Part shown: positions 10,303-27,222 of the stretch, one piece after another
How positions within the stretch are numbered: position 1 is the stretch's first letter
Layout of the letters: every line of letters begins with the position of its first letter
Assembly (NCBI GenBank): GCA_030705805.1
Contig: JAUZPY010000002.1
Span: 1-53,869, forward strand
Source: Bacillota bacterium
GTDB taxonomy: Bacteria; Bacillota; Clostridia; CAKSNL01; HGM11501
Length of the DNA: 53,869 bases
Reading direction: 5' to 3'
The notes under the pieces: model-generated
Seen by the model: only the letters and a program-made list of their open reading frames with translations
Told to the model about the DNA's origin: nothing
Database searches by the model: none
Program-made: the position numbers and the translations under genes

Positions 10303-10318
10303 GTACGGAGGAGAGAAA

Positions 10319-11026
10319 ATGATTTTTGCAGGAGTATTGGCGGGAGGCAAAGGAACAAGACTTGAAAGCTCAATTCCCAAACAATTTATTGAGATTGAAG
10401 GCATTCCGCTGATAGTAAGAACGCTAAAAACCTTTTTATCTGTAGAAAGCTTTAATAAAGTAATTGTGTCAATGAATAAAGACTGGGTGGATTATTGCCT
10501 GAATTTGTTTTCCGAATATGATATGCCCATGGATAGGTTGGAGGTTATTTTGGGAGGAGAAACGCGTTTTGAATCCCTTTATAATGTAACCTTAAAGGCG
10601 GCAAAGCTTAGCGGCGGAAAAGATGATATAATTGTCACCCATGACTGTGCAAGACTTTTTGTTTCGAAAAGAATTTTAGAGGACAATATAAGGGATATTG
10701 AAAATTACGATGCGGTGACGACTGCTATTCCTACAATTGATACTATACTGCATACTCCTGACGGCAAGGTGAGTACCGATGTTCCGGTCAGAAAAGAGCT
10801 GTGGCTTGACCAGGGCCCCCAGTCATATAAAGTGGCTCAGTTTTTGGAAATGGCGGACAAGCTTACTTCTATGGAACGTGAAAAATATATGGAAGCGGGC
10901 AAGCTTTACATTGATTCGGGACTTAAAGTCGGACTTGTTATGGGAGATCGATACAACTTCAAAATCACAAATGATATAGATTTAAAATATGCCGCATTTT
11001 TGTTGAGAGAGGGGGCGGTCCAGTGA
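10319..11026 (+). CDS. IspD/TarI-family cytidylyltransferase
   Basis: N-terminal FAGVLAGGKGTRLESSIPKQF nucleotide-binding signature. Size is ~235 aa. Confidence 0.8.
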   Translation: MIFAGVLAGGKGTRLESSIPKQFIEIEGIPLIVRTLKTFLSVESFNKVIVSMNKDWVDYCLNLFSEYDMPMDRLEVILGGETRFESLYNVTLKAAKLSGGKDDIIVTHDCARLFVSKRILEDNIRDIENYDAVTTAIPTIDTILHTPDGKVSTDVPVRKELWLDQGPQSYKVAQFLEMADKLTSMEREKYMEAGKLYIDSGLKVGLVMGDRYNFKITNDIDLKYAAFLLREGAVQ

Positions 11027-12376: not shown

Positions 12377-13015
12377 ATGTACCGGAAATTTTTTAAAAGA
12401 TTAATTGACATAATCTGCGCTCTTTTGGCGGTATTGGTGTTTTCCCCTCTGTACATACTTGTAGCACTTCTTGTTCGTATAAAACTTGGATCACCCATAT
12501 TGTTTAAACAGGAACGCCCGGGGCTAAATGAAAAAATTTTTAAACTTTATAAGTTTCGAACCATGACCGATTCAAGGGATGAATCCGGAAATCTGCTTTC
12601 CGACGAAATTAGAATGACTTCTTTTGGCAGGCTGCTGCGGGCTACGAGCTTAGATGAGCTACCGGAGGCTTTTAATATTTTAAAAGGTGACATGAGCGTT
12701 GTTGGACCAAGGCCGCTGTTGCCCGAATATTTACCTTACTATAATGAAATGGAAAAACATAGACATGATGTTAGGCCTGGCTTAACAGGGCTTGCGCAGA
12801 TAAATGGAAGAATTGAAATCAGTTGGGAAGAAAGGTTTTATTATGATCTTGAATATCTTAAAGGTATTACATTTATAAGCGATTGCAAAATTATAGTTTT
12901 AACCTGTTGGAAGGCTTTTGTAAAACATGAAGGAGTAGGACAAACCGGGGAGGCTCCTGAAAGTTTACATATTATTAGGCAGGAGCAAAGTCAAAAGATA
13001 GAATATAAAGCATGA
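12377..13015 (+). CDS. Small monotopic phosphoglycosyl transferase (PglC / EpsL / WbaP-C-terminal type), priming enzyme
   Basis: KRLIDIICALLAVLVFSPLYILVAL re-entrant helix, KFRTM, and LDELPEAFNILKGDMSVVGPRP. Confidence 0.88.
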   Translation: MYRKFFKRLIDIICALLAVLVFSPLYILVALLVRIKLGSPILFKQERPGLNEKIFKLYKFRTMTDSRDESGNLLSDEIRMTSFGRLLRATSLDELPEAFNILKGDMSVVGPRPLLPEYLPYYNEMEKHRHDVRPGLTGLAQINGRIEISWEERFYYDLEYLKGITFISDCKIIVLTCWKAFVKHEGVGQTGEAPESLHIIRQEQSQKIEYKA

Positions 13016-13096: not shown

Positions 13097-14146
13097 TTGA
13101 AGTTGCAAATAATATCTATAGATCAGTCAGACAGATGGGATAACATAGTAAAATCATTTAAAGACTATGATGTTTATTATTTAAGTGGATATGTTAAGGC
13201 GTTTGAACTTCACGGTGATGGTGAGCCGATGCTTTTTTATTTTGATAATGGAAGCACAAGAGCTATAAATGTTGCCATGAAACGTGATATTGCAAAAGAT
13301 GAAAATTTTGTTGGAAAAATACCCGAAAACACATATTTTGATTTATCAACACCTTATGGCTATGGCGGTTTTATTATAGAAGGTGATGATATTAAATCTT
13401 TAAACGATTCTTACGGTGAATATTGCCAGAAAAATAATATAATATCAGAATTTGTGAGGTTTAATCCGGTCATTAATAATTGCAGAAATGCAGCAGAAAC
13501 ATATGAAACTGTATGTTTGGGTAATACCGTATGCATAGATACTACAAATGATGATATTATCTGGGATAATTTTATCAGCCAGAACAGAAATAAAATTAGA
13601 AAAGCAAAAAAATCAGGGCTTAAGGTTTTTTGGGGAAGAGATGAATGGTTAATCGATGAATTTATTAAAATATATAATGAGACTATGAAAAGAGATAACG
13701 CTACCAGTTATTATTATTTTAATAAAGAATTTTATCAAAGCGTGTTTAATGATTTAAAATATAACTCAATGTTTTTTTATACAAAATTAAATGATGAAAT
13801 TATTGCTATCTCTATTATTATGTATTGTAATAATAAAATGCATTATCATCTTTCGGCTTCAAAAAAAGAATATCAACACTTAGCACCAACAAATTTACTT
13901 CTTTATGAATGTGCTTGCTTTGGAGCAAGTATTGGCTTTAAAAGCTTACATCTTGGCGGTGGCGTTGGTTGTAAAGATGATAGCTTGTATATATTTAAAA
14001 AAGGGTTTAATCGTAATGGTGATAAAGAATTTTATATTGGAAAAAAAATATTCAATAGCGATTTGTATGAGCATTTATTGAAAATAAGAGAAAGTGAAGC
14101 TTCCTTTAATCGAGAAACATCATTCTTTCCGGCTTACAGAGGCTGA
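13097..14146 (+). CDS. FemAB-like / GNAT-fold acyl- or aminoacyl-transferase
   Basis: TTG start. The two-lobed size (~350 aa), STPYGYGG, the HYHLSAS...APTNLLLYE block and the LHLGGG tail resemble FemAB-related GNAT proteins. Assignment by eye. Confidence 0.5.
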   Translation: MKLQIISIDQSDRWDNIVKSFKDYDVYYLSGYVKAFELHGDGEPMLFYFDNGSTRAINVAMKRDIAKDENFVGKIPENTYFDLSTPYGYGGFIIEGDDIKSLNDSYGEYCQKNNIISEFVRFNPVINNCRNAAETYETVCLGNTVCIDTTNDDIIWDNFISQNRNKIRKAKKSGLKVFWGRDEWLIDEFIKIYNETMKRDNATSYYYFNKEFYQSVFNDLKYNSMFFYTKLNDEIIAISIIMYCNNKMHYHLSASKKEYQHLAPTNLLLYECACFGASIGFKSLHLGGGVGCKDDSLYIFKKGFNRNGDKEFYIGKKIFNSDLYEHLLKIRESEASFNRETSFFPAYRG

Positions 14147-14349: not shown

Positions 14350-15615
14350 ATGGGGAAAGATATATGGATTTGCAATCATCACGCTACAAATACGATGCTT
14401 TTGAAGAGTGGGCGCCATCACTGGCTGGCTAAAGAGCTTAGAAAAAACGGATATAACCCTACAATTTTTACGGCCAGCTCAAAACATTATAATGAAGGAA
14501 TTGATCTTGGCAATAAACTTTATATGGAAAATGAAAGTGATGGAAACAGGTATGTTGTTGTAAAAACCAATAATTATAACGGCAATGGATTTCAAAGAGT
14601 AAAAAGTATGCTTGTCTTTGCAACAAATCTGGTGAGGACAGGTAAAAAATATGCTAAGATTAATGGCACGCCTGATGTCATAATAGGTTCTTCGGTTCAT
14701 CCTTTTACTTGCGTGGCAGCTATTAAGCTTGCAAGGCGGTTTAAATGCAAGTGTATTTGTGAAATAAGAGATTTGTGGCCGGAATCAATTATTGCATATA
14801 AAGTATCTTCCCCAAACAGCTTGGGTGTAAAGGCCTTGTACAAGCTTGAAAAGTGGATTTATACTAATGCTGACAGACTTATTTTTACCATGGAAGGCGG
14901 AAAGGATTACATAATTAAACAAGGCTGGGATAAGGAGGATGGAGGACCTGTTGATTTAAAAAAGGTTTTTTATGTTAACAACGGAGTGGATTTAGAGTCA
15001 TATGTTGAGTATAAAAAAACAAACACCTTTGAAGATGAAGATTTGGATGATAAGGAAGCGTATAAAATAATTTATACAGGAAGTCTCGGGGATTCGGATA
15101 AGAGTATATGGAACTTAATTGAAGCGGCAGACCTGATGAATAATGATCCGGATTTTGAGAAATGCAGGATTTTAATATACGGAAAAGGTGACCAGGAACA
15201 AAAAATGAAGGATCTCTGCAAGGAGAGAGAGCTTAATAATATATCCTTTAAAGGATTGGTAAATCGTAAGTTTATTCCATATGTTCTATCTAAATGCGAT
15301 TTAAATATTTTAAACTGTGATGACTGCAGTATTATTGAAAAGTACGGAGGGAGCCAGAATAAGCTTTCCGAATATATAGCCAGCGGACACCCTATTATTA
15401 CAGGTGAGAGCGGAAAATACTGCATCGTTGCAAACTATAAAATAGGGATGTCTGTTGAAGATATTACTCCAAAACGCTTATGTGAGGCAATTAAAGAACT
15501 AAAAGATATGAGTTCGGAGCAAAAGGAAGAAATGAAAAAAGCTTTAGATTATGCTACTAATGAATTTTCATGGAAAACTCTTGCAGGGAAAGTAATAGAT
15601 ATTATAGAAAATTAA
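14350..15615 (+). CDS. Glycosyltransferase family 4 (WbuB-like)
   Basis: The N-terminus IWICNHHATN...GRHHWLAKEL is typical of WbuB-type GT4 enzymes. C-terminal GT-B fold. Confidence 0.75.
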   Translation: MGKDIWICNHHATNTMLLKSGRHHWLAKELRKNGYNPTIFTASSKHYNEGIDLGNKLYMENESDGNRYVVVKTNNYNGNGFQRVKSMLVFATNLVRTGKKYAKINGTPDVIIGSSVHPFTCVAAIKLARRFKCKCICEIRDLWPESIIAYKVSSPNSLGVKALYKLEKWIYTNADRLIFTMEGGKDYIIKQGWDKEDGGPVDLKKVFYVNNGVDLESYVEYKKTNTFEDEDLDDKEAYKIIYTGSLGDSDKSIWNLIEAADLMNNDPDFEKCRILIYGKGDQEQKMKDLCKERELNNISFKGLVNRKFIPYVLSKCDLNILNCDDCSIIEKYGGSQNKLSEYIASGHPIITGESGKYCIVANYKIGMSVEDITPKRLCEAIKELKDMSSEQKEEMKKALDYATNEFSWKTLAGKVIDIIEN

Positions 15616-15678
15616 TTAGACTTTGAAATTAATCATTGGCTATATAAACTATATTTGAGTAAAGAACAGGGGCAAAAA

Positions 15679-16788
15679 ATGAAAATTTTACACTTAACAA
15701 ACGGATATTTTCATACCACCCTTTACCGGGAGCTGTTAAAACACCTTAAGGAATCAGATTCTGAAATTGAACCGGAAACAGTTGTTCTTTCGGGAAAAGA
15801 TGAGAAAAATGAGCCTGAAGCAGGAGTTCACGATATAAAGCTTTTTAATAAATATGATAGATATTTTTATTTTCATAAGCAAAGGAAATCTTTCAGAGCT
15901 GTAAAAAAGGTAACAAACCTTGGGGATATCAATTTAGTTCATGCTCATTTCCTTTTTACCAACGGAGGAGTAGCGCTAAGAATAAAAAAGCAGTATAAAG
16001 TGCCTTATATAGTTGCAGTGAGAAATACCGATGTAAATGTGTTTTTTAAAAAGCTGAAACATCTAAGAGCCTATGGAGTAAAAATTATGGAGCAGGCAGA
16101 AAAAATAATTTTTCTTTCTGAGGCGTATCAAGATGCAGTGCTTGAGACATATGTACCTTTACAAAAAAGAGAAGATATCAGATCGAAATGCGAGGTAATA
16201 CCGAACGGTATAGACCAATTCTGGCTTGACAATAAAAACATTCATACAAGAGATGACGACAGTAAAAAAATCAATATTGTATTTGCGGGCCGAATAGATG
16301 AAAATAAAAATTGTATGGCTGCTGTTTTCGCTTGTGAAAAGCTGATTGAAAAAGGCTATGATGTTCATTATACAGCAGTAGGAAATGTTTCTTCCAAGGA
16401 GATATTTGATAGTATTAAGGCAAAACCTTTCACTGAATGTTTACCTCCTAAAAGCAAGGAGGAACTGATAGAATTATATAAGAATCAGGATATATTTTTG
16501 ATGCCCTCAAAGCACGAAACTTTCGGTTTATCTTATGCTGAAGCCATGACTCAAGGGCTTCCCGTAATTTACACAAGAGGTCAGGGCTTTGATAAGCAGT
16601 TTCCTGAAGGAACAGTGGGATATAGCGTAGATTGCTTAGACAGTGATGAGATAGCGGAAAAAATTCTTAAGATTCTATCAGGTTTCAATGAAATGAGCAG
16701 CAGATGCGCTGAAAACAGCGGAAAGTTTGACTGGGATATAATTTCTAAAAAATACATTAAAATATATGACGTCAATAAAAGAATTTAG
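15679..16788 (+). CDS. Glycosyltransferase family 4
   Basis: ATG 15679 (MKILHLTNGY). EX7E-type motif ETFGLSYAEAMTQGLPVI. Confidence 0.8.
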   Translation: MKILHLTNGYFHTTLYRELLKHLKESDSEIEPETVVLSGKDEKNEPEAGVHDIKLFNKYDRYFYFHKQRKSFRAVKKVTNLGDINLVHAHFLFTNGGVALRIKKQYKVPYIVAVRNTDVNVFFKKLKHLRAYGVKIMEQAEKIIFLSEAYQDAVLETYVPLQKREDIRSKCEVIPNGIDQFWLDNKNIHTRDDDSKKINIVFAGRIDENKNCMAAVFACEKLIEKGYDVHYTAVGNVSSKEIFDSIKAKPFTECLPPKSKEELIELYKNQDIFLMPSKHETFGLSYAEAMTQGLPVIYTRGQGFDKQFPEGTVGYSVDCLDSDEIAEKILKILSGFNEMSSRCAENSGKFDWDIISKKYIKIYDVNKRI

Positions 16789-16807: not shown

Positions 16808-18121
16808 ATGAAACAAATGCTATTAAATAGGATTGAAAAGAAAGAAATTGTGTGCGGAGTAGTTGGCCTTGGCTATGTTGGGCTTCCTTTAGCAGTTGAA
16901 AAGGCAAAGGCTGGCTTTAAGACTATTGGCTTTGACGTACAGTCACAGAAGGTTGATATGGTAAATACCGGCAAGAACTATATCGGCGACGTAGTGGATG
17001 CCGACCTGGAGAAAATAGTCAAAGATGGAATGCTTTCCGCTACAACAGACTTTTCATTTGTAAAAGACGTTGATTTTATAGCAATTTGTGTTCCTACACC
17101 TCTGGACAAGCACCAGGAACCTGACATCAGCTATGTAAGAGATTCCTCGATAGCAGTTTCGAAATACCTAAAAAAAGGAACAATGGTTGTCCTTGAATCC
17201 ACTACTTATCCGGGCACTACCGAAGAGCTTATTAAGCCGATTTTAGAAGAAGGATCAGGATTAAAGTGCGGAGTGGATTTTTATTTGGGCTTTTCGCCTG
17301 AACGTGTTGATCCGGGCAATCTTATATATAAAACAAAAAATACGCCTAAGGTTGTCGGCGCTATCGGGCAGGACGCAACCGAGGTCATTGCTGCAATGTA
17401 CCGTGCAGTTCTTGAAGGAGATGTTCATACGGTTTCTTCTCCTGCCATTGCAGAAATGGAGAAGATACTGGAAAATACATATAGAAATATAAATATCGGC
17501 TTGGTTAATGAGCTTGCTATATTATGTAACCGCATGGGTATATCCATGTGGGAGGTTATTGAAGCAGCAAAGACAAAACCTTACGGATTCCAGGCCTTTT
17601 ATCCGGGCCCGGGACTGGGAGGACATTGTATTCCTCTTGACCCTTACTATTTAACATGGAAAGCTCGTGAATATGGATTCCATACGTCAATGATCGAAGC
17701 TTCTATGATGATAAATGATAAGATGCCTGAATACTGTGTTGACAGAGCGGCAAAAGTGTTAAACGGATTTAAGAAGGCTATGAACGGAGCAAAGGTTTTG
17801 GTTTTAGGAGTTGCATATAAGCAGGACATTGACGATTACCGTGAAAGTCCCGCTATCCGTGTTATCGAAGTGCTTTTAAAAGAGGGCGCAGATGTTACAT
17901 ATTTTGATCCTTGGGTAAAGACCTTCAGAGAGGGAGAACTTACCATGAACAGCATCCCAAGTCTTACGGGGGAAGTGTTGGAGGAATCCGACCTGGTTAT
18001 GGTTACAGCTGCCCATACAAATGTGGACTACGAATTCGTTCAGAAACATGCAAAGGCCATATTTGATACTAAGAATGTATTAAAGAATATAAAAAACAGA
18101 GAAAATATAGAGGTGCTTTAA
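16808..18121 (+). CDS. UDP-N-acetylhexosamine 6-dehydrogenase (WbpA / WecC family)
   Basis: VCGVVGLGYVGLPLA Rossmann start and GGHCIPLDP catalytic cysteine motif. WbpA versus WecC specificity cannot be decided by eye. Confidence 0.85.
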   Translation: MKQMLLNRIEKKEIVCGVVGLGYVGLPLAVEKAKAGFKTIGFDVQSQKVDMVNTGKNYIGDVVDADLEKIVKDGMLSATTDFSFVKDVDFIAICVPTPLDKHQEPDISYVRDSSIAVSKYLKKGTMVVLESTTYPGTTEELIKPILEEGSGLKCGVDFYLGFSPERVDPGNLIYKTKNTPKVVGAIGQDATEVIAAMYRAVLEGDVHTVSSPAIAEMEKILENTYRNINIGLVNELAILCNRMGISMWEVIEAAKTKPYGFQAFYPGPGLGGHCIPLDPYYLTWKAREYGFHTSMIEASMMINDKMPEYCVDRAAKVLNGFKKAMNGAKVLVLGVAYKQDIDDYRESPAIRVIEVLLKEGADVTYFDPWVKTFREGELTMNSIPSLTGEVLEESDLVMVTAAHTNVDYEFVQKHAKAIFDTKNVLKNIKNRENIEVL

Positions 18122-18122
18122 T

Positions 18123-18848
18123 ATGCCTTTTAGCTATCGTGAATACGAGAATATGATAGAGCTTCTTTGTACTAACGGCTATAAAATAACGGGATATAAT
18201 AACTGGCAGGATTATGAAAAGTGCGTTATATTCAGACACGATATTGACTTTTCTATTGAAAAGGCAGTTGAATTTGCCAAGATAGAAAAAAGATTTAATG
18301 TAAATAGTACATATTTTACTTTGGTTTCAAGCAACTTTTACAATGTTTTTTCGGAAAAAAGCTGTTTGCTTCTTAATGAAATCATCTCTTCAGGCCATGA
18401 AATAGGGCTTCATTTTGATGAAAAGAGATATCCTGAAAGTTATGGAAATCCCGATAAGATAAAAGAAAAAGTTCTTTTCGAAAAAGATGTTTTGGAAAGA
18501 GCAATAGGGCAGGAAATTAAGACCCTTTCCATGCATCGGCCCAGTAAGGAGATATTGGCTTCCAATTTGCATATCCCCGGAATGATAAACAGCTATGGAA
18601 ATACCTTTTTTAAAGAGTTTAAATATTTGTCGGATTCCAAATGCAGCTGGAGAGAGCCGGTTCTTGATATAATAAAGGAAAACAAGTATAATAGACTCCA
18701 TATTCTTACTCATTCCTTCTGGTACAATAAAAAAGAAGAGAAGGTTAATAAAATGCTTGAGGATTTTGTAAATTCTGCCTCAAATGAAAGATATGAAGAT
18801 TTAAACGACAATTTTTCTGACTTAAAAGAAATCTTGCCCCTAAGATAG
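18123..18848 (+). CDS. Polysaccharide-deacetylase-like (divergent CE4 / NodB fold) protein
   Basis: FRHDIDFS ... STYF ... GHEIGLHFDE ... SMHRP pattern, resembling divergent deacetylases seen in O-antigen loci. By eye. Confidence 0.5.
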   Translation: MPFSYREYENMIELLCTNGYKITGYNNWQDYEKCVIFRHDIDFSIEKAVEFAKIEKRFNVNSTYFTLVSSNFYNVFSEKSCLLLNEIISSGHEIGLHFDEKRYPESYGNPDKIKEKVLFEKDVLERAIGQEIKTLSMHRPSKEILASNLHIPGMINSYGNTFFKEFKYLSDSKCSWREPVLDIIKENKYNRLHILTHSFWYNKKEEKVNKMLEDFVNSASNERYEDLNDNFSDLKEILPLR

Positions 18849-18860
18849 GAGATTAGCACT

Positions 18861-19583
18861 ATGAGAGTAGGCATTCATCAAATAAATTATTTACCTTGGC
18901 TCGGCTATTTTAATAAAATTGCAAAAAGTGATAAATTTATTTTAATGGACGAGGTGCAATTAACAGACAGCGGTACAATGCAGCGGAACAGGGTGCTTAA
19001 TAAAAACGGAGAGCCTACCTATATAACAATTGCTTTTGAAAAAAAGGGATATCAGGAAAAAATGTTTAAGGAAATTAAACTTAATGAACAGGTTGACTGG
19101 CAGGCAAGGCAATTAAACTTTCTTAAGGATGCCTACCATAAAAGTCCCTATTGGGAGGAAGTTTTCAATCTTATAGAGCCCCTTTTTTTAAGGAAGTTTG
19201 AATATCTGATGGATGTAAATTTGCTGGGACTGAAAACCATGCTGGAGGCTATGGAAATTCATACGCCTTTGGTTATGCAAAGTGAGCTTTTATATGACAG
19301 AGAAAGTAAAAAAAATGATTTGGTCTTAGAACTATGTAAAGCTATAGGTGCAGATATATATCTTTCCGGAAACGGAGCGAAAAAATATATGGAGCTTACT
19401 CCTTTTAGGGAAGTAGGAATAGCTGTCCAGTTTCAGACCTATACTGCGCCGGCTTATTCCCAGAGGTATTCACCAGAGTCCATTACGGGCCTTAGCATTT
19501 TGGACGTTCTCCTTAATATAGGGATTGAGAAAACAAAAAAGCTATTTTGGGAAAATTTACAGAATGAAGAGGTTAGCTTATGA
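18861..19583 (+). CDS. WbqC-family protein (function unknown)
   Basis: The N-terminal IHQINYLPWLGYFNKI signature is typical of the WbqC-like family. Confidence 0.7.
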   Translation: MRVGIHQINYLPWLGYFNKIAKSDKFILMDEVQLTDSGTMQRNRVLNKNGEPTYITIAFEKKGYQEKMFKEIKLNEQVDWQARQLNFLKDAYHKSPYWEEVFNLIEPLFLRKFEYLMDVNLLGLKTMLEAMEIHTPLVMQSELLYDRESKKNDLVLELCKAIGADIYLSGNGAKKYMELTPFREVGIAVQFQTYTAPAYSQRYSPESITGLSILDVLLNIGIEKTKKLFWENLQNEEVSL

Positions 19584-20662
19584 AATATGCGTTGATTGGA
19601 TGTGGGCGTATTGCCCCAAATCATATTGCGGCCGCTATAGCCAATAAGCTTTTAATAGCTGCAGTATGTGATATAGTGCCGGAGAACATGGAAAAGGTTT
19701 TAGAGCCTTTGACAGAGAAAGAAAAAGTTAATGTTTGCCGGTATACCGATTATAAGGAATTGCTTAAAAAAGAAAAGCCCACCCTTGTGGCCATTGCAAC
19801 CGAAAGCGGTAAGCATGCAAAAATTGCATTGGACTGCATTGAAGAAGGCTGCAATGTTATTATAGAAAAGCCAATAGCACTTTCAATAGAAGATGCTGAT
19901 GCGATTATAAAAAAAGCAAAGGAAAAAGGGGTAATGGTGTGCGCAAACCACCAGAACCGCTTCAATAAGTCCGTACAGAAAATACGCTCGGCTATAGAAG
20001 AAGGGCGCTTTGGTAAATTGCTGTACGGCACAGCTCATATAAGATGGAACAGGGGAGAAAATTATTATTCTCAAGCGCCCTGGAGAGGTACCTGGGAGCA
20101 GGATGGCGGCGCCCTTATGAATCAATGCATACATAATATTGATCTCTTAAGATGGATGATGGGCAGCGACATTACGGAGGTTTTTGCCTACACAGATAAC
20201 CTTAAGCATGACTATATAGAGGCCGAGGACTTAGGAATGGCTTTGGTGAAATTTTCAAACGGCTCTTATGGCATAATTGAAGGGACCACAGATATATATC
20301 CTAAAAATCTGGAAGAGACCCTTTATATTTTTGGAGATAAAGGCACAATAAAAGCTGGCGGTAAGTCCGTTAACGTTATTGAGGAGTGGAGTTTTGCAGA
20401 CGGAATTGATGACCCTGAGTATGTAAAATCCAACTTTCATGAAAATCCCCCTAACGTTTATGGGTACGGACATACTCCGCTTTATGCCGACGTAATTGAA
20501 TCAATAAGCTCTGAAAGAGAACCTTATATAACGGGTGAAGACGGGAAAAGAGCCCTTGAACTTGTGCTTGCAATATATAAATCCGCAGCAACCGGAAAGC
20601 CGGTAAAGATGCCTCTTAAAAAATGCTCAACACTTGACTTTAAAGGCAGGTTTGATAGATAA
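19580..20662 (+). CDS. Gfo/Idh/MocA oxidoreductase, WbpB-like (UDP-GlcNAcA 3-dehydrogenase candidate)
   Basis: MKYALIGCGRIAPNH Rossmann start and an EKP motif. Sits next to the WbpD-like and WbpE-like genes. Confidence 0.75.
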   Translation: MKYALIGCGRIAPNHIAAAIANKLLIAAVCDIVPENMEKVLEPLTEKEKVNVCRYTDYKELLKKEKPTLVAIATESGKHAKIALDCIEEGCNVIIEKPIALSIEDADAIIKKAKEKGVMVCANHQNRFNKSVQKIRSAIEEGRFGKLLYGTAHIRWNRGENYYSQAPWRGTWEQDGGALMNQCIHNIDLLRWMMGSDITEVFAYTDNLKHDYIEAEDLGMALVKFSNGSYGIIEGTTDIYPKNLEETLYIFGDKGTIKAGGKSVNVIEEWSFADGIDDPEYVKSNFHENPPNVYGYGHTPLYADVIESISSEREPYITGEDGKRALELVLAIYKSAATGKPVKMPLKKCSTLDFKGRFDR

Positions 20663-21231
20663 TGGATAAAGATTATTTTGTTCATGAGAGCAGCTATATT
20701 GATGAGGGTGTTAGGATTGGAGCCGGTACGAAAATATGGTTTTTTTGCCATGTGCAAAAGGGAGCTGTATTAGGAGAAAAGTGCTCACTTGGTCAGAACG
20801 TTAACATCGGAAACAATGTTAAAATTGGTACCGGCTGTAAGATTCAGAATAATGTTTCGCTGTATGAGGGCGTAGAGCTATTGGATTATGTGTTCTGCGG
20901 GCCCTCATGTGTGTTTACTAATGACCTTACACCGAGAGCAAAATATCCAAAGGGAAGCGCCGGATATAAAAAGACTCTTGTAAAAACCGGTGCATCTATT
21001 GGCGCAAATGCCACGATAGTATGCGGAAACACTATAGGAAGCTGGGCACTGATTGGAGCGGGAGCGGTAGTTGCCGGGGACGTTTTAGATCATGCACTTA
21101 TGCTTGGAGTTCCTGCCAGGAGGGCAGGCTGGGCTTGTGAATGCGGAAATCTTTTAAAGGAAGGACTCAAATGTGCTCATTGCGGCAGGGAATATAAAGA
21201 AGAAAGCACAGGACTAATTGAGGTGAAGTAA
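20662..21231 (+). CDS. Left-handed beta-helix N-acetyltransferase, WbpD/WlbB-like, with a C-terminal four-cysteine ribbon
   Basis: Hexapeptide repeats. Tail CECGNLLKEGLKCAHCG. Context. Confidence 0.75.
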   Translation: MDKDYFVHESSYIDEGVRIGAGTKIWFFCHVQKGAVLGEKCSLGQNVNIGNNVKIGTGCKIQNNVSLYEGVELLDYVFCGPSCVFTNDLTPRAKYPKGSAGYKKTLVKTGASIGANATIVCGNTIGSWALIGAGAVVAGDVLDHALMLGVPARRAGWACECGNLLKEGLKCAHCGREYKEESTGLIEVK

Positions 21232-22365
21232 ATGGAATTTATAGATTTAAAAGCTCAATACAAAAGCATAGAAAATGAAATAAAGTCAAATATAAACACG
21301 GTTTTAGAGCATGGAAAATATATAATGGGGCCGGAAGTGGCTCTTCTTGAACAGGAACTGTCAGAATATGCAGGAGCCAAATACTGCGTCACCTGTGCAA
21401 ACGGAACCGATGCCCTGCAGATGGCACTTATGGCATGGAATATTGGCTTTGGAGATGCTGTATTTGTGCCTTCTTTTACATTTATGTCTACTGCTGAAGT
21501 AGTTAATCTTCAAGGAGCTACTCCCATATTTGTAGATATTAGTTTGGACACCTTCAATATGTGCCCTGACAGTTTAGAGAATGCTATAAAGAAAGTTATT
21601 GCCGAGGGGAAATTAAAGCCTAAGGCTGTAATTCCTGTTGATTTATTTGGACAGTGTGCAGAGTTTGATAAAATAATTCCTTTGGCAAGAAAATATAAAT
21701 TACTTATTTTAGAGGATGGAGCGCAAGGCTTTGGAGGAACTATTAACGGCAAAAAGGCGTGCACCTTTGGCGACATATCCACTACATCTTTTTTCCCTGC
21801 CAAGCCTCTTGGCTGTTACGGTGACGGAGGAGCCATTTTTACAGATAATGAAAACTGGTATGAAACATTAAAATCTATACGTGTACATGGAAAAGGAACA
21901 ATGAAATATGATAACGTCAGAGTGGGTTTAAACTCCCGCCTTGATACTATGCAAGCTGCAATAGTGTTAGCCAAGCTTCATGCTTTCATAGAGCATGAAC
22001 TTGACAATCGCCATAAATATGCGGATATGTACACATCAATTTTGAAAGACAGAGTAAAAACGCCCGCTTGTCCGAAAGGTTTTACTTCAAGCTGGGCTCA
22101 GTACACTCTTTTATTTGACAGCAGTGAAATAAGAGATAAAGTTAGGGATAGATTAAAAGAAAAAGGTATACCTTCAATGGTCTATTATCCGACTCCTTTG
22201 CACAGGCAAACAGTATATAAGCCTTTGGGATATGAAGAAGGAAGCTTGCCGGCAAGCGAAAAAGCAGCTAAAGGAGTTTTAAGTCTGCCCATGCATCCTT
22301 ACCTTTCAAAGGAGGCAGTAAGCTTTGTTGCTGAAAATGTGATAAAGGCTTTTGAGGAGCAATAA
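21232..22365 (+). CDS. DegT-family aminotransferase, WbpE/WlbC-like (3-aminotransferase candidate)
   Basis: The typical DegT N-terminus is present. The PLP lysine sits in SFFPAKPLG. Confidence 0.8.
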   Translation: MEFIDLKAQYKSIENEIKSNINTVLEHGKYIMGPEVALLEQELSEYAGAKYCVTCANGTDALQMALMAWNIGFGDAVFVPSFTFMSTAEVVNLQGATPIFVDISLDTFNMCPDSLENAIKKVIAEGKLKPKAVIPVDLFGQCAEFDKIIPLARKYKLLILEDGAQGFGGTINGKKACTFGDISTTSFFPAKPLGCYGDGGAIFTDNENWYETLKSIRVHGKGTMKYDNVRVGLNSRLDTMQAAIVLAKLHAFIEHELDNRHKYADMYTSILKDRVKTPACPKGFTSSWAQYTLLFDSSEIRDKVRDRLKEKGIPSMVYYPTPLHRQTVYKPLGYEEGSLPASEKAAKGVLSLPMHPYLSKEAVSFVAENVIKAFEEQ

Positions 22366-22366
22366 A

Positions 22367-23554
22367 ATGGGGGAAAAGAAAAAAATACTTTTTGTTAATT
22401 CATCCTTTACTTATGGAGGAATTCAGACAGCTTTAAAGAACCTTTTAAACAGTTTGGATTATGAAAAGTATGATGTTGATGTGCTTGTTTTTTCGGATTC
22501 TGGAATTGATAGGGCAGATCTCTCGGATAATGTAAGAGTATTATATGGGGAAAAGCTTGTTAAGACTCTTGAAAGATCCGTAGGGGATCTTTTGAGAGAA
22601 AAAAAATATATGCAAGCGGCCTTTGCCCTTGCAGCAAGAGCCTGGACAAAAGCTTTCGGGAATACTATACCTGTAAATTTGGCTTTGCTGTCGCAGAAAA
22701 AGCTTAAAGGGTATGATTGTGCCATAGCATACAGGCATGAAAGAAACGCTAAGCGTTATACCGGAGGTTACTGTAGGTTTATTATACACAGAGTGCAGGC
22801 AAAGAAAAAAATCGGTTGGATTCACGGAGACTATAGTACGCTCGGGTTTACATCAAAACATTTTGAGAAAATATATAATAAGTTAGATTATGTAGTAGCT
22901 GTATCAAACGGATGTGCAGAAAGCTTTAAAAAAGCTTTACCTAATGTAAACACCCCTGTAACCTACATTTATAACTGTAATAATTATGATAAAATAAAGG
23001 AAATGGCAGATCAGAATCCGGTAATTTACGATGAAAATCAAATTAATGTTGTGACAGTGGCAAGACTGTCACAGGAAAAAGGCTTGGAAAGAGCTATTTA
23101 TGCAATAGATGCCTGCGTAAAAGAAGGGATAAACGTTCATTATCACCTTATTGGAGGAGGAACCCTTAACCAAAAGCTTCTTTCTACTGTAAATGAGTGC
23201 GGATTATCTGACCATGTAACCTTATATGGACCACAAGAAAACCCATATAGATATTTAAAGAATGCAGATTTATTTTTGCTGACTTCTTTTCATGAAGCCG
23301 CCCCTATGGTATTTAATGAGGCAAAAGCCCTTGGAGTACCAATACTGTCCACAGAAACTATCTCTGCCTATGAAATGATATTAAAATGTAATGCAGGGTG
23401 GGTTTGTGAAAATTCTGAAAGCGGTATAAAGGAAGCAATTATAAAAACACTTCAGAATAAAAATGAAATTAATGAAAAAAAGGAGAAGTTAAGAGAGCAG
23501 CATTTTGGAAATGAGGAATCAATCCAAATGTTTGATGAAGTGCTTAACAAATAA
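22367..23554 (+). CDS. Glycosyltransferase family 4
   Basis: GAGGAG RBS, then ATG 22367. Motif FHEAAPMVFNEAKALGVPIL. Confidence 0.75.
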   Translation: MGEKKKILFVNSSFTYGGIQTALKNLLNSLDYEKYDVDVLVFSDSGIDRADLSDNVRVLYGEKLVKTLERSVGDLLREKKYMQAAFALAARAWTKAFGNTIPVNLALLSQKKLKGYDCAIAYRHERNAKRYTGGYCRFIIHRVQAKKKIGWIHGDYSTLGFTSKHFEKIYNKLDYVVAVSNGCAESFKKALPNVNTPVTYIYNCNNYDKIKEMADQNPVIYDENQINVVTVARLSQEKGLERAIYAIDACVKEGINVHYHLIGGGTLNQKLLSTVNECGLSDHVTLYGPQENPYRYLKNADLFLLTSFHEAAPMVFNEAKALGVPILSTETISAYEMILKCNAGWVCENSESGIKEAIIKTLQNKNEINEKKEKLREQHFGNEESIQMFDEVLNK

Positions 23555-23559
23555 AGGCT

Positions 23560-25008
23560 ATGGAAAACCTGTCCACAGAGTTTAATGATAGCGTTTCAGT
23601 AGGCAGAGAAAAAACGCAGAAGAAGATTCTTTTTATATCAATAGTAATTGCGTTATCACTTCTTGGCACGCAATTAACCGGTTCTAAACCTTTAATTGCA
23701 ATTCCTCTTATTGCTTTTTACGCACTGGTAACCTTCGCGCCCTTATATTCTTTGCTTCCTGTTTTTTTGTTTTTCCTGCCTTGGGCCAGTCTTCTAAAAT
23801 TACAGCCGGAAAAACAAACGGCTTTCAGCTTGGCTATAATTATATTTTTTGTACGGCTTTTTCTTCCTACGAAAGAGAATAAAATAACAGGTGGAGGAAC
23901 CATAGACATCAAAGCTTTAATGTATATGGAGATACTTACTGTTTTGTGTATTTTTGCAAAAATGTTATGGGGATATCCTATTAAAGCAAACTTTGTCAGG
24001 ATATTAATGCTCATGTTTGTTGTGCCGGCATACTTAAAAAAATACAGCACCAGGATCTCTTTTAAATGGTGCACTGTTTTTATTGCTTGCGGAACTATGC
24101 TTGCAAGCTACCTTGCTATTGCTTTTGCTGACTATCCGAATATTAGCCGTTATATAAGTATAGATGAAATTGTATCTAATGAAGTAACGAGGTATGCAGG
24201 ATTTAGTGGAGACCCCAATACTTACTCGATGCTTTCTCTTGCTGCAATAAGCTGTATTTTGATTATGCTTGTAACCTCAAAAGGGGGAAAATACCAGATC
24301 CTAGGCTATAGCTGTGTTTTGCTGCTGATTTATCAAGGATTGGTATCAATCTCAAAAATGTTTGTATTGCTTTTGGCAATACTGATCTTTTTGTGGCTTT
24401 GGACGCTACCTAAAGTTAAAGGTAAGGCATATATTCAATTATTTGCTGTAGTGTTTATAACTGCCGGAATATTGATTGCTTTTTCTACTGATTGGTTTGA
24501 CGGAATATATTCAATGTATCTTGCCAGAATGAAAGATACGGAAAATTTAAATGACCTTACCACCGGCCGGGCATGGCTTCAAAAATCTTACTTGTCATTT
24601 TTCTATAAACATCCGTTAAAGCTAATAATAGGACAAGGCATATCTGCACAATATGATGTGGGTTTGGGACACAGCAGAGCTTCTCATAACACTTTGATTC
24701 AGCTGGTCTATGAGTATGGACTTTTTGGTGTTGGAGTTTTTATTTTCTGGTTTAAGTATTCGGCAGGAAATATTTTAGAGAAGAGAGAAATACCTCTTAA
24801 AGGAATGAGATTTGCTCTTGTTTTAATTATGGTAGTGGGCTGCTTTGGAGCATGGCCGGCACTGGATCTTATGTTTAAAGACGCCTTTTTCTATTATATC
24901 ACTTTGTTTTTTGTAGCTTTGAAATATATATGTGATTATGAAGAAGAAAAGCCTAAAAGGTTTGTGCAAAAGTATTTTGAAGGTGGGGGAATGATAAATG
25001 AAGGTTAA
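23560..25008 (+). CDS. O-antigen polymerase / ligase family membrane protein (Wzy-like)
   Basis: More than 10 hydrophobic segments. Wzy_C-like loop GHSRASHNTLIQLVYEYGLFG. Confidence 0.75.
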   Translation: MENLSTEFNDSVSVGREKTQKKILFISIVIALSLLGTQLTGSKPLIAIPLIAFYALVTFAPLYSLLPVFLFFLPWASLLKLQPEKQTAFSLAIIIFFVRLFLPTKENKITGGGTIDIKALMYMEILTVLCIFAKMLWGYPIKANFVRILMLMFVVPAYLKKYSTRISFKWCTVFIACGTMLASYLAIAFADYPNISRYISIDEIVSNEVTRYAGFSGDPNTYSMLSLAAISCILIMLVTSKGGKYQILGYSCVLLLIYQGLVSISKMFVLLLAILIFLWLWTLPKVKGKAYIQLFAVVFITAGILIAFSTDWFDGIYSMYLARMKDTENLNDLTTGRAWLQKSYLSFFYKHPLKLIIGQGISAQYDVGLGHSRASHNTLIQLVYEYGLFGVGVFIFWFKYSAGNILEKREIPLKGMRFALVLIMVVGCFGAWPALDLMFKDAFFYYITLFFVALKYICDYEEEKPKRFVQKYFEGGGMINEG

Positions 25009-25537
25009 AAAGATAATAGGTATTATTATGTATAGATCCTTTGCGAAATATCTTCCTCGTTCAAATGGCAGAATTAATTTGGGAAGCAAACAGCTAAGAA
25101 GATTCTGCGGTAAGCTTATGTTGGATGAGTGCGGCAGAAATGTAAACATAGAAAGGAAGGCAAACTTTTCCAGCAGGGTTAAAATAGGTAACGATTCCGG
25201 AATAGGTATAAACTCAAGTATTGCAGGTTATGTAACAATTGGCAATGACGTTATGATGGGCCCGGAATGCATTATTTATACCAGAAATCACGAGTTTAAA
25301 CGTACAGATATTCCAATGCATGAGCAAGGATTTTCAGAGGTAAAGCCTGTAGTAATCGGCAATGATGTTTGGATAGGCGGGAGGGTTATCATCCTTCCGG
25401 GGGTACATATTGGAAACGGCTGCATTATAGGAGCGGGTGCTGTTGTCACTAAAGATGTTCCCGATTATGCGATTGTAGGAGGAAATCCTGCAAAGGTTAT
25501 AAAATATAGGACTGATGAACAAAACAAGGAAGAATAA
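24998..25537 (+). CDS. Hexapeptide-repeat O-acetyltransferase (LacA / WcaF-like)
   Basis: Hexapeptide repeats and the VVIGNDVWIGGRVIILPGVHIGNGCIIGAGAVV core. 11-nt overlap with the Wzy-like gene. Confidence 0.75.
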   Translation: MKVKKIIGIIMYRSFAKYLPRSNGRINLGSKQLRRFCGKLMLDECGRNVNIERKANFSSRVKIGNDSGIGINSSIAGYVTIGNDVMMGPECIIYTRNHEFKRTDIPMHEQGFSEVKPVVIGNDVWIGGRVIILPGVHIGNGCIIGAGAVVTKDVPDYAIVGGNPAKVIKYRTDEQNKEE

Positions 25538-25668
25538 TTTCTTTTTAAAGCTGTACTTTAACTGTATTGCAGTTGTCTTTATGAGGCAGCACAATTGTAT
25601 GGCAAGCGAGTATTTTGAAAAGTTCTCATCTGCTGTGCTAAACATTGCTTCCTGAAAGGTCGGAAAAC

Positions 25669-27222
25669 ATGTCGAGAATTGAAAACTCAGCTAGAAATCT
25701 GTCAGCAAGTGCTGTCAGGGGGATACTTGTAATAATACTGAACTTTATTACCAGAACAGTATTTATTAATGTCCTGGGAAAACGATACCTTGGAATCAGC
25801 GATTTGTTTACAAATGTTATTTCAGTATTATCCTTGGCGGAGCTTGGTATAGGATCTGCAATAGTGTTTAATTTGTATAAGCCTATAGCAGAGAAGGATA
25901 TTCCGCAAATCAGGCTTCTGGTTAAGTTTTATAGAACCTGCTATCAATTTATAGGATACTTTATTTTAGCAGTAGGTTTATGCCTTATGCCGTTTTTAAA
26001 GTACATAATTAAAGATGATGTGAGTTTTATTAATGCAAATTTGATATTTTCCCTTTATCTTATAAGAACGGTATTTTCATATTTATTTTTTGCGTATAAA
26101 ACTTCACTGCTGACAGCAAGCCAACAAGAATACAAGCTCACAATAATAAGCACTGTTTTTGCAGTTATTTCAAATTTAGCGCAGATTGCAGTATTAGTGC
26201 TTTTTAAAAACTTTACGTTATATGTCTTTATTGTTATATTAATTACAATACTTCAAAATTTTGTCGGGGCAAGACAAACCGATAAGGAATATCCTTTTAT
26301 TAAAGAAAAAGTTGATGATAAGCTTACTAAGGAAGAACGGAAAGAAATATTTAAAAATTGTTATGCTTTAGTAATTTATAATATAAACGAAGTTGTAGTA
26401 AATGCTACAGACAATATTGTTCTTTCGACCTTTATAGGCCTTGAAATTGTCGGTATGTACTCAAACTATGTTATACTCTATGGTGCTATTAAGGATATAC
26501 TTCAAAAGTTATATAATGCAATGATTCCAAGCATTGGAAACCTTCATGCAGAAGGAGATGTTGAGCACGAACATAAGCTTTTTAATTCTCTTAACTTTAT
26601 GACTTCTTTTTTGTTTGGAATAGGAGCCGTTGGATTTGCCGTAGTAGGAAACGAGCTTATTCATATATGGATAGGCGATAAATATATTATTGATCAATCT
26701 TTTGCAGTAATAATGGCTGTAAATTTATACATAACCGGAATGGACAAAATACTGTCAGTTTTCCGAAATGCAATGGGACTTTTTCAGCAGGCGAAATACC
26801 GTCCTCTTGCAGGAATAATTATCAATTTGGTATTTTCAATCATAGCAGTTCGTTATATGGGCGTTCATGGAGTTGTGCTTGGTACAATTGTTGCAAATGT
26901 AACTACATTCATGTGGTATGATCCTTATATTATTTATAGGGAAGTATTTAAGAGATCAGCTTGGGAGTATTATAAAAAGAACATACAATACGGCTTGCTG
27001 GTTATAGCTTGCGGAGTGCTTTCATATTATATCTGTAATTTGATAGGCGGAATAAATCTGGGCTACTTATTATTGCATTCAATAATATGTGTAATTATTA
27101 CCGGAGGCGCTTTTTACGCCATATATGGCAGGACAGAGGACTTTAAATATATTATAAATATGGCAAAACATGTTTTAAAAAAAATATTTAAAAAATTTAG
27201 AAGAAAACAGCCAGAAGTTTAA
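25669..27222 (+). CDS. Polysaccharide flippase (Wzx, MOP superfamily)
   Basis: ATG 25669 (MSRIENSARN, a typical Wzx N-terminus). About 12-14 TM segments. Confidence 0.8.
   Translation: MSRIENSARNLSASAVRGILVIILNFITRTVFINVLGKRYLGISDLFTNVISVLSLAELGIGSAIVFNLYKPIAEKDIPQIRLLVKFYRTCYQFIGYFILAVGLCLMPFLKYIIKDDVSFINANLIFSLYLIRTVFSYLFFAYKTSLLTASQQEYKLTIISTVFAVISNLAQIAVLVLFKNFTLYVFIVILITILQNFVGARQTDKEYPFIKEKVDDKLTKEERKEIFKNCYALVIYNINEVVVNATDNIVLSTFIGLEIVGMYSNYVILYGAIKDILQKLYNAMIPSIGNLHAEGDVEHEHKLFNSLNFMTSFLFGIGAVGFAVVGNELIHIWIGDKYIIDQSFAVIMAVNLYITGMDKILSVFRNAMGLFQQAKYRPLAGIIINLVFSIIAVRYMGVHGVVLGTIVANVTTFMWYDPYIIYREVFKRSAWEYYKKNIQYGLLVIACGVLSYYICNLIGGINLGYLLLHSIICVIITGGAFYAIYGRTEDFKYIINMAKHVLKKIFKKFRRKQPEV

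Follow-up and report, generated by a model that had tools for sequence, protein, structure and literature searches.

A WbqC-family protein beside a divergent CE4-fold protein in a Wbp-type operon of Clostridia: a predicted module for re-derivatising the 2-amine of a diamino-uronic acid

In a 53,869-nt stretch of DNA from a Bacillota bacterium of the class Clostridia (GenBank assembly GCA_030705805.1, contig JAUZPY010000002.1, positions 1 to 53,869 of the forward strand; hereafter the window), a six-gene cassette at 16808–22365 combines enzymes of the Wbp pathway for diacetamido-uronic acids with two further genes, one encoding a divergent protein of the CE4/NodB fold, here called PDA-like, and the other a member of the WbqC family. 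The reading best supported by our comparative analysis is that the PDA-like protein frees the N-2 amine of the Wbp sugar and that WbqC then derivatises this amine; we give it a probability of about 0.5. The pathway type itself is already known, as Wbp and as Wbp/Vim. What is new is the WbqC–deacetylase module, the fusion of GNAT and WbqC domains and the interchange of WbqC with LpxD-like proteins, together with a WbqC family apparently without a solved structural relative and a PDA-like branch of CE4 that is a habitual partner of Wbp genes in gut Clostridia. Among several possible end products, an earlier first-pass annotation of this DNA had named one that is re-acylated after de-N-acetylation. 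Gene pairing, gene fusions, complementarity between gene families and a gene exchange in a related locus favour that suggestion, which had been connected neither with its precedent, the Wbp/Vim pathway, nor with a FemAB-like gene in the window.

A six-gene cassette within a polysaccharide operon

The cassette is enclosed by a long polysaccharide operon that runs on one strand from about 8410 to 28486, and the guanine-plus-cytosine content of ~36% across the window is low and Clostridia-like. All six open reading frames (ORFs) lie on the forward strand, exactly where the first-pass annotation had placed them. They encode, in order, a nucleotide-sugar 6-dehydrogenase (16808–18121, 437 aa), which is WbpA-like by context only; the PDA-like protein (18123–18848, 241 aa), a predicted 2-N-deacetylase of the Wbp sugar in the role of VimE; the WbqC-family protein (18861–19583, 240 aa), predicted to act on the freed amine; a WbpB/WlbA-type UDP-GlcNAcA 3-dehydrogenase of the Gfo/Idh/MocA family (19580–20662, 360 aa); a WbpD/WlbB-type 3-N-acetyltransferase of the left-handed beta-helix (LbH) type (20662–21231, 189 aa); and a WbpE-type pyridoxal-phosphate aminotransferase of the DegT_DnrJ_EryC1 family (21232–22365, 377 aa). 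The motifs quoted earlier, RHDIDFS, GHEIGLHFDE and IHQINYLPWLGYF, are present in the translations. The tight packing was likewise borne out, as the junctions measure 1, 12, −4, −1 and 0 nt, and a Shine–Dalgarno sequence of the GAGG/GGAG type lies upstream of every start codon in the cassette. No terminator-like site was found on the forward strand within 16808–22365, in a scan that performed overall at chance level, as did the scan for promoters. The cassette is a real unit and not a chance juxtaposition.

WbqC pairs with de-N-acetylases of three folds

The neighbourhood of WbqC was surveyed in 80 loci from named genomes (81 with the window), which come from Clostridia, Bacteroidota, Nitrospirota, Acidobacteriota, Chloroflexota, Proteobacteria, Actinomycetota and other groups. 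ORFs were called and clustered, hidden Markov models (HMMs) of the recurrent families were built, and the identities of these families were confirmed by Pfam. A PIG-L gene occurs in 43 of the 81 loci and a PDA-like gene in 27, no locus has both, and 11 have neither, several of the latter being truncated contigs. In two of these 11, both from Heyndrickxia, a gene for an LpxC-family deacetylase lies directly upstream of WbqC. WbqC thus pairs with de-N-acetylases of three unrelated folds, of which the two common ones exclude each other, and this points to one functional slot that is filled by analogous enzymes. The first-pass annotation had regarded the cassette as a handle on WbqC function, to be followed up by statistics on neighbouring WbqC and deacetylase genes; the pairing found across the 81 loci justifies that view.

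The genes between and around the pair are also recurrent. A GNAT gene (Acetyltransf_3) or a formyltransferase gene (Formyl_trans_N) often stands between the deacetylase gene and WbqC, and three proteins are fusions of GNAT and WbqC (P0292, P0314 and P0372); the gene for P0372 comes straight after PIG-L, and that for P0314 straight after PDA-like. The same deacetylase–WbqC pattern was seen in a set of independently called genes with precomputed Pfam assignments, in strings such as PDA-like, formyltransferase (FMT)+GNAT fusion, WbqC; or GT4, WbqC, PIG-L, GT4, phosphoglycosyl transferase; or GT4, PIG-L, GNAT, WbqC. Plasmids annotated by the Prokaryotic Genome Annotation Pipeline (PGAP) provided two more cases: FemA/B, WbqC and PIG-L genes are consecutive on B. 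mycoides pBWB401, and a pseudaminic-acid cluster of Mariluticola is without pseH but has PIG-L and WbqC. The glycosyltransferase family of the window gene at 14350–15615 is present in 39 of the 80 WbqC loci and is the most frequent flanker of the deacetylase–WbqC pairs. More generally, WbqC seems to be the fixed component of a module for swapping N-acyl groups, in which the de-N-acetylase (PIG-L, CE4-like, LpxC-like) can be exchanged.

Some less common arrangements were noted in the same survey. One 445-aa protein, a fusion of Formyl_trans_N and GNAT (Acetyltransf_3) domains, is encoded between a PDA-like gene and WbqC (L166, 3674–5011). A sulfotransferase gene (Sulfotransfer_3) or an S-adenosylmethionine-dependent methyltransferase gene stands next to WbqC and a deacetylase gene in some loci (L034, L037, L059 and L075; L043 and L068), and in several Bacteroidota loci (L013, L056) WbqC follows an AsnB-like gene and there is no deacetylase gene. 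We also considered a general link between WbqC and aminoacyl-tRNA, an idea taken from a Streptomyces operon described below. It was not supported: tRNA genes are not enriched near WbqC (five genes, in 3 of 60 loci scanned), and the window's own lie at least 16 kb from the cassette.

An LpxD-like gene occupies the place of WbqC in a syntenic locus

A second survey covered 80 metagenomic loci, mostly from human gut, whose PDA-like proteins are 45–58% identical to that of the window, bringing both surveys together to about 160–170 loci besides the window. A WbpA or WbpB gene is present in 36 of the 48 loci that are at least 6 kb long. Directly downstream of the PDA-like gene there is nearly always a gene for an N-acyltransferase. 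Of the 63 loci in which this position could be scored, 32 have an LbH gene there, 7 a formyltransferase gene, 4 WbqC and 1 a GNAT gene; about 12 further loci, e.g. L092, have the LbH gene in this position beyond the scripted count of 32. The LbH protein encoded there resembles LpxD (E 3e-27 to UDP-3-O-acylglucosamine N-acyltransferases). Upstream, GT4 genes are commonest; among the 60 loci that extend at least 700 nt in this direction, 30 have a member of the 14350–15615 family before the PDA-like gene. A typical order is DegT, phosphoglycosyl transferase, glycosyltransferase, PDA-like, LpxD-like, WbpE, LbH, dehydrogenase and WbpB, and PDA-like genes lie among WbpB, WbpD and WbpE in differing orders (L001, L002, L006, L009, L011, L150 and L092). 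By analogy, a PDA-like gene followed by an LpxD-like gene is the logic of LpxC followed by LpxD, applied to a Wbp sugar.

In a complementarity test, loci with PDA-like and Wbp genes were dereplicated at 85% PDA-like identity into 24 clusters and compared within a 5-kb radius. Two or more N-acyltransferase-type genes were found in 11 of the 13 loci without WbqC, against 2 of the 11 with WbqC (Fisher p = 0.003). The clearest single case is L150, which is syntenic with the window (identities: DegT 42%, phosphoglycosyl transferase 53%, FemAB-like 50%, glycosyltransferase 38%, PDA-like 48%, WbpE 48%, WbpD 70%, WbpB 59%) and has an LpxD-like LbH gene exactly in the slot that WbqC holds in the window. 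In both loci there would be three amines, namely N-2 (freed), N-3 (from WbpE) and N-4 (from a LegC-like DegT aminotransferase, encoded at 8410 in the window). The candidates for acylating them are WbpD, the FemAB-like protein and WbqC in the window, and WbpD, the FemAB-like protein and the LpxD-like protein in L150, a count that puts WbqC in the slot of an N-acyltransferase.

In a group of loci from common human-gut Clostridia (L084–L097; L092, 5986–9654), the PDA-like gene is accompanied by two LpxD-like genes (~300 aa) placed around WbpE, WbpA and WbpB. This arrangement predicts a 2,3-diamino uronic acid with a non-acetyl acyl group on both nitrogens.

The PDA-like protein is a divergent member of the CE4 fold

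The PDA-like protein has no Pfam match, PF01522 (CE4) included, and only a faint match to PdaB (E 8e-4). Its AlphaFold2 model is confident (predicted local distance difference test, pLDDT, 94.9) and was matched by Foldseek to deacetylases and esterases of the CE4/NodB type, whose fold is a distorted beta/alpha barrel, with a probability of 1.0 and E-values of 1e-5 to 1e-3. Nearly all of the top 21 matches (E ≤ 1e-3) are CE4 proteins, and the matches include chitin, peptidoglycan and poly-N-acetylglucosamine (PNAG) deacetylases as well as the deformylase ArnD. Their query-normalised template-modelling (TM) scores of 0.35–0.49 are modest, so the protein represents a divergent branch. In addition, a profile built from 48 homologues matches the S. 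mutans CE4 esterase 2w3z (E 0.0011), with D40 aligned on the first Asp of FDD and H97 on the first His of HSFSH; in CE4 enzymes, these two positions correspond to the Asp that serves as catalytic base and to a His that binds metal. Both the Foldseek and the profile matches agree with the first-pass description of a divergent NodB-like deacetylase.

Ten residues are invariant in the family (R38, H39, D40, D42, H97, D99, E100, H138, R139 and H197), and polar residues conserved to this degree suggest that the enzyme is active but that its site has been remodelled. At E ≤ 1e-3, 2,388 proteins of the family were found, and nearly all of the 120 listed are without a Pfam match. The sequences of the PDA-like protein and of WbqC show neither a signal peptide nor a membrane segment, which suggests that both act in the cytoplasm. 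Elsewhere in the window, a 256-aa protein without a Pfam match is encoded on the reverse strand (46136–46906); its first residues, IHFSVDDT, recall motif 1 of NodB, and it may be a further divergent protein of the CE4 type.

WbqC has a confident model and possible links to sugar amines

The assignment of the third cassette gene to the WbqC family is secure: it matches PF08889 with E 2.2e-62 and 211 bits (cut-off 21.3) over model positions 1–217 of 218. The family is large, with 17,683 clusters at 50% identity matching the profile at E ≤ 0.001. A comparison of 65 family members, the window protein among them, shows six invariant residues, G15, R42, Y167, Y176, Y199 and D215. The AlphaFold2 model of WbqC is confident (pLDDT 96.5, predicted TM score 0.92). 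Structure prediction, which had been proposed for both cassette proteins, gave a CE4 fold for the PDA-like protein and, for WbqC, a confident model that has no relative in the PDB. The best Foldseek matches of WbqC are at noise level and include an adenylate kinase, ThiF/SAE1, a cytidylyltransferase (probability 0.41) and TyrRS; a nucleotide-binding, HUP-like core was considered on this basis and rejected as unsupported. Isoelectric points in the family are unremarkable. An exact search with the window's WbqC sequence matched no contig, and the region was found in no public sequencing run. Two proteins are tandem WbqC–WbqC fusions (P0241, 494 aa; P0255, 489 aa), a hint that WbqC may work as a dimer.

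The literature offers a few leads. In S. oneidensis, wbqC lies beside a dTDP-Qui4N gene and is annotated as a 'putative glycine transferase' (PMC7253198). The wbq genes belong to E. coli O121 (PMC4536017), and in the O antigen of this bacterium Qui4N bears an N-acetylglycine in amide linkage (PMC7685785, PMC3210612). Genes for a ProRS paralogue, GT4, WbqC, LmbE, a tRNA and MurG share an operon in Streptomyces (PMC10404621). These leads agree with the gene neighbourhoods in suggesting that WbqC may act on sugar amines, with GNAT and formyltransferase partners capping what has been added. The first-pass annotation had called WbqC a family with no assigned biochemical function; this is right as regards tested functions, but the putative glycine transferase annotation had escaped it.

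Three Wbp enzymes are assigned by homology and the dehydrogenase by context

Of the four Wbp assignments made earlier, those of WbpB, WbpD and WbpE are firm. The WbpB-type protein has the N- and C-terminal GFO_IDH_MocA domains (Pfam) and matches 3q2k (E 5.6e-73) and 3q2i (E 2.4e-68) over its full length; these PDB entries are labelled only 'oxidoreductase' or 'dehydrogenase', and we take them to be WlbA (WbpB-type) structures. The WbpD-type protein has hexapeptide repeats (Pfam) and a full-length match to 3mqg (E 1.2e-53), titled 'lipopolysaccharides biosynthesis acetyltransferase' and presumably WlbB; its orthologues in L001, L002, L006, L009, L011 and L150 are 65–71% identical and adjoin WbpB and WbpE. 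The DegT protein (DegT_DnrJ_EryC1, E 1e-101) matches P. aeruginosa WbpE over its full length (3nu7, E 2.6e-101; 3nyu is also WbpE) and 4qgr with E 2.7e-119.

The WbpA assignment of the dehydrogenase is by context. The protein has the N-terminal, central and C-terminal UDPG_MGDP_dh domains and scores 430 bits with TIGR03026, above the cut-off, but only 248 bits with the TviB model and 257 and 295 bits with the WecC models, all far under their cut-offs. Its best matches among PDB sequences, a set without a WbpA structure, are the UDP-ManNAc dehydrogenases 4r16 and Cap5O (E ~1e-72). It belongs to the WecC/WbpA/TviB/Cap5O group, within which homology alone does not place it. Its orthologues (57–79% identity) adjoin WbpB/D/E or a PDA-like gene in L001, L005, L007 and L041, and gene context favours the role of WbpA, a UDP-GlcNAc 6-dehydrogenase, whose product would be UDP-GlcNAcA.

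The absence of a 2-epimerase, noted in the first pass, holds within the window: an HMM built from Pfam-confirmed Epimerase_2 genes of related loci found no WbpI/WlbD-type gene in the 53.9 kb (E ≤ 1e-5). The gluco-configured product tentatively suggested on that ground gains little support from it, since L001, L007 and L011 carry PDA-like, WbqC and Epimerase_2 genes together, which makes the absence a weak clue to configuration, and an epimerase could sit elsewhere in the genome. The same three relatives led us to reject WbqC as a substitute for the 2-epimerase, as they own both genes. Amidation of the uronic acid, a further product suggested earlier, was rejected for this window too, because an AsnB-family HMM from the WbqC loci found no AsnB-like (WbpS-type amidotransferase) gene in it.

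Proposed pathway and its closest relatives

We propose a variant of the Wbp/Vim pathway inside a Wzx/Wzy-dependent surface-polysaccharide operon of this uncultured bacterium. The dehydrogenase and the WbpB-, WbpE- and WbpD-like enzymes would convert UDP-N-acetylglucosamine (UDP-GlcNAc) into UDP-2-acetamido-3-acetamido-2,3-dideoxy-glucuronic acid, as homology indicates for WbpB, WbpD and WbpE and gene context for the dehydrogenase. The cytoplasmic, CE4-fold PDA-like protein would then strip the original N-acetyl group from C-2, a role suggested by its fold, by the precedent of VimE and by its habitual pairing with LpxD-like N-acyltransferases. WbqC would derivatise the freed 2-amine, in the likeliest case by transferring or ligating an acyl or aminoacyl group, e.g. 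glycyl; the slot replacement in L150, the GNAT fusions and the deacetylase pairing point in this direction. The predicted product is a 2-N-(acyl/aminoacyl)-3-N-acetyl-glucuronic acid residue, and an aminoacyl group would keep its free amine because genes for a capping GNAT or formyltransferase are absent from the window. The substrate of the last two steps may be either the UDP-sugar or, once a glycosyltransferase has acted, the lipid-linked sugar; as a rule, PIG-L and CE4 enzymes take glycosides or polymers as substrates, not nucleotide sugars. Taken part by part, the PDA-like protein is probably the N-2 deacetylase of the Wbp pathway, and for WbqC as the enzyme that then re-derivatises N-2 the chance is about even or slightly below. 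More tentative, and rather to be doubted at present, is a wider proposal that WbqC founds an amide-forming class with a new fold, i.e. N-aminoacyl or N-acyl transferases or ligases for amino sugars that operate across most phyla after de-N-acetylases or sugar aminotransferases, with GNAT or formyltransferase capping, and that would here make 2-N-aminoacyl-3-N-acetyl-glucuronic acid with a free alpha-amine.

The closest known system is the Wbp/Vim pathway, in which a CE4 deacetylase is proposed to remove the 2-N-acetyl group of the Wbp product before VimA, a FemAB-like protein of the TIGR03019 family, adds Ser or Gly; exchange of VimA between species switches the amino acid from Ser to Gly, and the roles of VimE and VimA have genetic and mass-spectrometric support rather than enzymology (PMC7468200). 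The window has WbpB, WbpD and WbpE and, judged by context, the WbpA dehydrogenase, together with a predicted CE4-type deacetylase linked to wbp genes and a FemAB-like gene in the operon, and the likeness of the PDA-like protein to VimE lies in its CE4 fold and its position between the dehydrogenase and WbpB. However, no WbqC has been described for the Vim system, whereas here its gene comes straight after that of the deacetylase. VimE matches CE4 at E 1e-83 (CDD), whereas the PDA-like protein is too divergent for the Pfam CE4 model. The window also lacks a WbpS/AsnB amidotransferase (WbpS is non-essential in P. gingivalis) and a 2-epimerase, and the host is of the Gram-positive-type Clostridia, with no type IX secretion system (T9SS). 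Compared with WbpA/B/E/D/I of P. aeruginosa and WlbA–D of Bordetella, the window has homologues of WbpB/D/E (E 1e-53 to 1e-101) and a dehydrogenase in the operon, but this dehydrogenase is not demonstrably WbpA, there is no WbpI/WlbD in the window, and two extra genes stand between steps 1 and 2.

Other parallels are more distant. De-N-acetylation followed by N-acylation at N-2 of a UDP-GlcNAc-derived sugar resembles LpxC and LpxD, and the resemblance extends to the LpxD-like LbH gene after PDA-like in most relatives and to the LpxC-family gene before WbqC in Heyndrickxia. The PDA-like protein has the CE4 and not the LpxC fold, however, WbqC is unrelated to LpxD, and the product is a Wzx/Wzy polysaccharide, not lipid A. 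Recurring strings of GT4, PIG-L, (GNAT) and WbqC recall the mycothiol and bacillithiol pathways (MshA/BshA, MshB/BshB, MshC/BshC, MshD), with WbqC standing where the ligase would be and GNAT where the capping enzyme would be, and the Streptomyces operon has GT4, WbqC, LmbE and ProRS genes (PMC10404621). This is an analogy only, as WbqC has no relation in sequence or fold to MshC or BshC and the products here are residues of a polysaccharide instead of thiols. The O-antigen wbq cluster of E. coli O121 / Shigella dysenteriae 7 and wbqC of S. oneidensis share with the window a protein of the same Pfam family; the polysaccharides have an amino sugar with an amide-linked (N-acetyl)glycine, and WbqC lies beside the aminotransferase that makes the amine. 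There the Qui4N amine comes from a transaminase and not from de-N-acetylation, and the glycine transferase assignment is a putative annotation.

Weighing the evidence and the alternatives

Several observations weigh against a role of WbqC on an N-2 amine freed by the PDA-like protein. WbqC is present in only 10 of the 80 metagenomic PDA-like loci, which shows that the deacetylase does not depend on it. Where WbqC does occur, it often accompanies a GNAT, a formyltransferase or (on Bacillus plasmids) FemA/B beside the deacetylase, and in those loci the partner could be the N-acylating enzyme while WbqC does something else. WbqC has no structural relative in the PDB (best Foldseek E 0.065, query-normalised TM < 0.35), no PDB sequence match with either the single sequence or a 65-sequence profile, and no recognisable cofactor, ATP or catalytic motif, so that the type of chemistry it performs is a guess; the open-access literature yielded no functional study of WbqC or PF08889. 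On the side of the PDA-like protein, the second Asp and the second His of the CE4 metal triad are out of register in the alignment with 2w3z, although D42, D99, E100, H138 and H197 could substitute for the missing positions, and a CE4 pseudoenzyme exists (BA3943, one of the Foldseek matches). The dehydrogenase could be of the WecC type, and the window's own FemAB/VimA-like protein could be the N-2 aminoacyl transferase. The locus samples, finally, are best-scoring and partly redundant, and the counts ignore phylogeny.

The FemAB/VimA-like protein (13097–14146, forward strand, 349 aa; Acetyltransf_6 and FemAB by Pfam) is a candidate aminoacyl transferase encoded in the same operon, 4 kb from the deacetylase gene, and opens the way to a classical Wbp/Vim pathway: it would aminoacylate the 2-amine freed by the PDA-like protein, and WbqC would carry out another step on the same residue, such as extending or processing the aminoacyl group or handling an intermediate. 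VimE (CE4) and VimA (FemAB-like) are proposed for just these roles in P. gingivalis and T. forsythia (PMC7468200), the window protein matches FemX as well as the VimA family TIGR03019, FemA/B stands in one string with WbqC and PIG-L on pBWB401, and the WbqC loci L023, L041, L047 and L076 have FemAB-like genes. The scores, however, are far under the cut-offs (FemX 45.7 bits; TIGR03019, pepcterm_femAB, 39.5 bits against 260), and FemAB-like genes are rare, with only five loci besides the window among ~160, whereas the pairing of WbqC with a deacetylase is found almost everywhere. In L150 the FemAB-like orthologue (50% identity) is in the same position although an LpxD-like gene directly follows PDA-like; there it is surplus to N-2 and likelier to serve the 4-amino sugar of the LegC-like DegT protein. 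We consider this alternative unlikely, if still worth taking seriously.

Two other explanations would detach WbqC from the N-2 amine or detach the whole pair from the Wbp sugar. If the 2-amine were simply left free, the product would be a zwitterionic polysaccharide and WbqC an unrelated tailoring or accessory protein (a substitute epimerase, a nucleotide-sugar hydrolase or a scaffold). This would suit the lack of any identifiable acyl-donor machinery, GNAT or formyltransferase in the window (family HMMs) and of a recognisable catalytic motif in WbqC, and Qui4N with a free amino group is known (PMC3210612). It is improbable given that WbqC is fused to GNATs, takes the place of a second N-acyltransferase and pairs with three mutually exclusive deacetylase folds, none of which would be expected of an unrelated protein; the epimerase variant is further disfavoured by the Epimerase_2 genes beside PDA-like and WbqC in L001, L007 and L011. 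The least probable explanation, in our judgement, makes the genes mere neighbours, with a WecC-type UDP-ManNAc dehydrogenase serving another residue and the PDA-like protein and WbqC acting on a different sugar or on the assembled polymer. The dehydrogenase does score slightly higher with UDP-ManNAc dehydrogenase models than with TviB, PDA-like and WbqC occur without WbpB, WbpD and WbpE in L004, L005 and L007, and enzymes of the PIG-L and CE4 families usually work on glycosides or polymers. Against this stand the translational coupling of the inserted genes to both sides (gaps of 1, 12 and −4 nt), the repeated placement of PDA-like amid WbpB, WbpD and WbpE in different gene orders, and the lack in the window of a UDP-GlcNAc 2-epimerase to make UDP-ManNAc; action on an exported polymer is unlikely for two proteins without secretion signals. 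De-N-acetylation by the PDA-like protein followed by derivatisation of N-2 by WbqC thus remains the best-supported reading.

For WbqC, the evidence points to one class of reaction, the modification of sugar amines, and names a concrete assay substrate, UDP-GlcN3NAcA made by WbpA/B/E/D and the PDA-like protein. This matters for a family whose genes lie in clusters for O antigens, capsules and wall polymers in many phyla, with E. coli O121 and Bacteroides among the carriers. The PDA-like family is a second unannotated one and seems to serve the Wbp-type pathways of gut Clostridia as their dedicated N-2 deacetylase. Such a role would extend Wbp/Vim logic from Bacteroidota to Firmicutes and would predict diamino-uronic acids with a variable N-2 substituent on common gut commensals, with a bearing on surface antigenicity. 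On the wider and more tentative proposal above, the 2-N-aminoacyl residue would be of the same kind as the sugar that links protein in Bacteroidota T9SS cargo, which raises the possibility of a covalent protein-to-polysaccharide anchor in a Gram-positive wall.

Other genes of the operon and the window

At the start of the operon, a LegC/PglE-like aminotransferase (8410–9528) scores 380 bits with TIGR04181, just under the cut-off of 420; no 4,6-dehydratase or PglD-type acetyltransferase was seen among the ORFs scanned, with no dedicated search for either. Three consecutive genes follow (9532–12066), for a LicD-family phosphotransferase, a D-ribitol-5-phosphate cytidylyltransferase (NF001183, 225 bits, above cut-off) and an enzyme of the D-2-hydroxyacid/phosphoglycerate dehydrogenase family. 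They suggest a ribitol-phosphate or similar phosphodiester on the polymer, with an unusual reductase replacing TarJ. Next come a small PglC-type phosphoglycosyl transferase (12377–13015) and, beside it, the FemAB-like protein, which may acylate the LegC-type 4-amine. Two GT4 glycosyltransferases (14350–15615 and 15655–16788, forward strand; Pfam) lie directly upstream of the cassette. Downstream, on the same strand and in the same operon (22352–27222; Pfam/NCBIfam), are another GT4, a Wzy-like polymerase, an O-acetyltransferase of the WbbJ/Maa type and a flippase, labelled Wzx-like by inspection alone. For this GT4 gene, the mechanically called TTG start at 22352 gives a 14-nt overlap with WbpE; the likelier start is an ATG in the same frame at 22367 (MGEKKK...), just past the WbpE stop codon.

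The locus is flanked by genes for three large proteins (31493–35710 and 40999–43530) that are secreted and have SLH domains at their C-termini. Instead of forming a capsule, the polysaccharide could therefore be a secondary cell-wall polymer to which SLH proteins are anchored. Directly after the polysaccharide operon, genes for a GH4 glycosidase and a glucuronyl-esterase-like (GCE_fung) protein were found at 28603–31355. The reverse strand at 35805–39501 carries [FeFe]-hydrogenase maturation genes for HydF and for HydG-like and HydE-like proteins, of which HydF was confirmed by Pfam and the other two are radical-SAM proteins. At 2304–7569, the translations read as a pyrimidine operon (dihydroorotase, PyrK-like, PyrD, PyrF, PyrE and PyrB), assigned by reading only.

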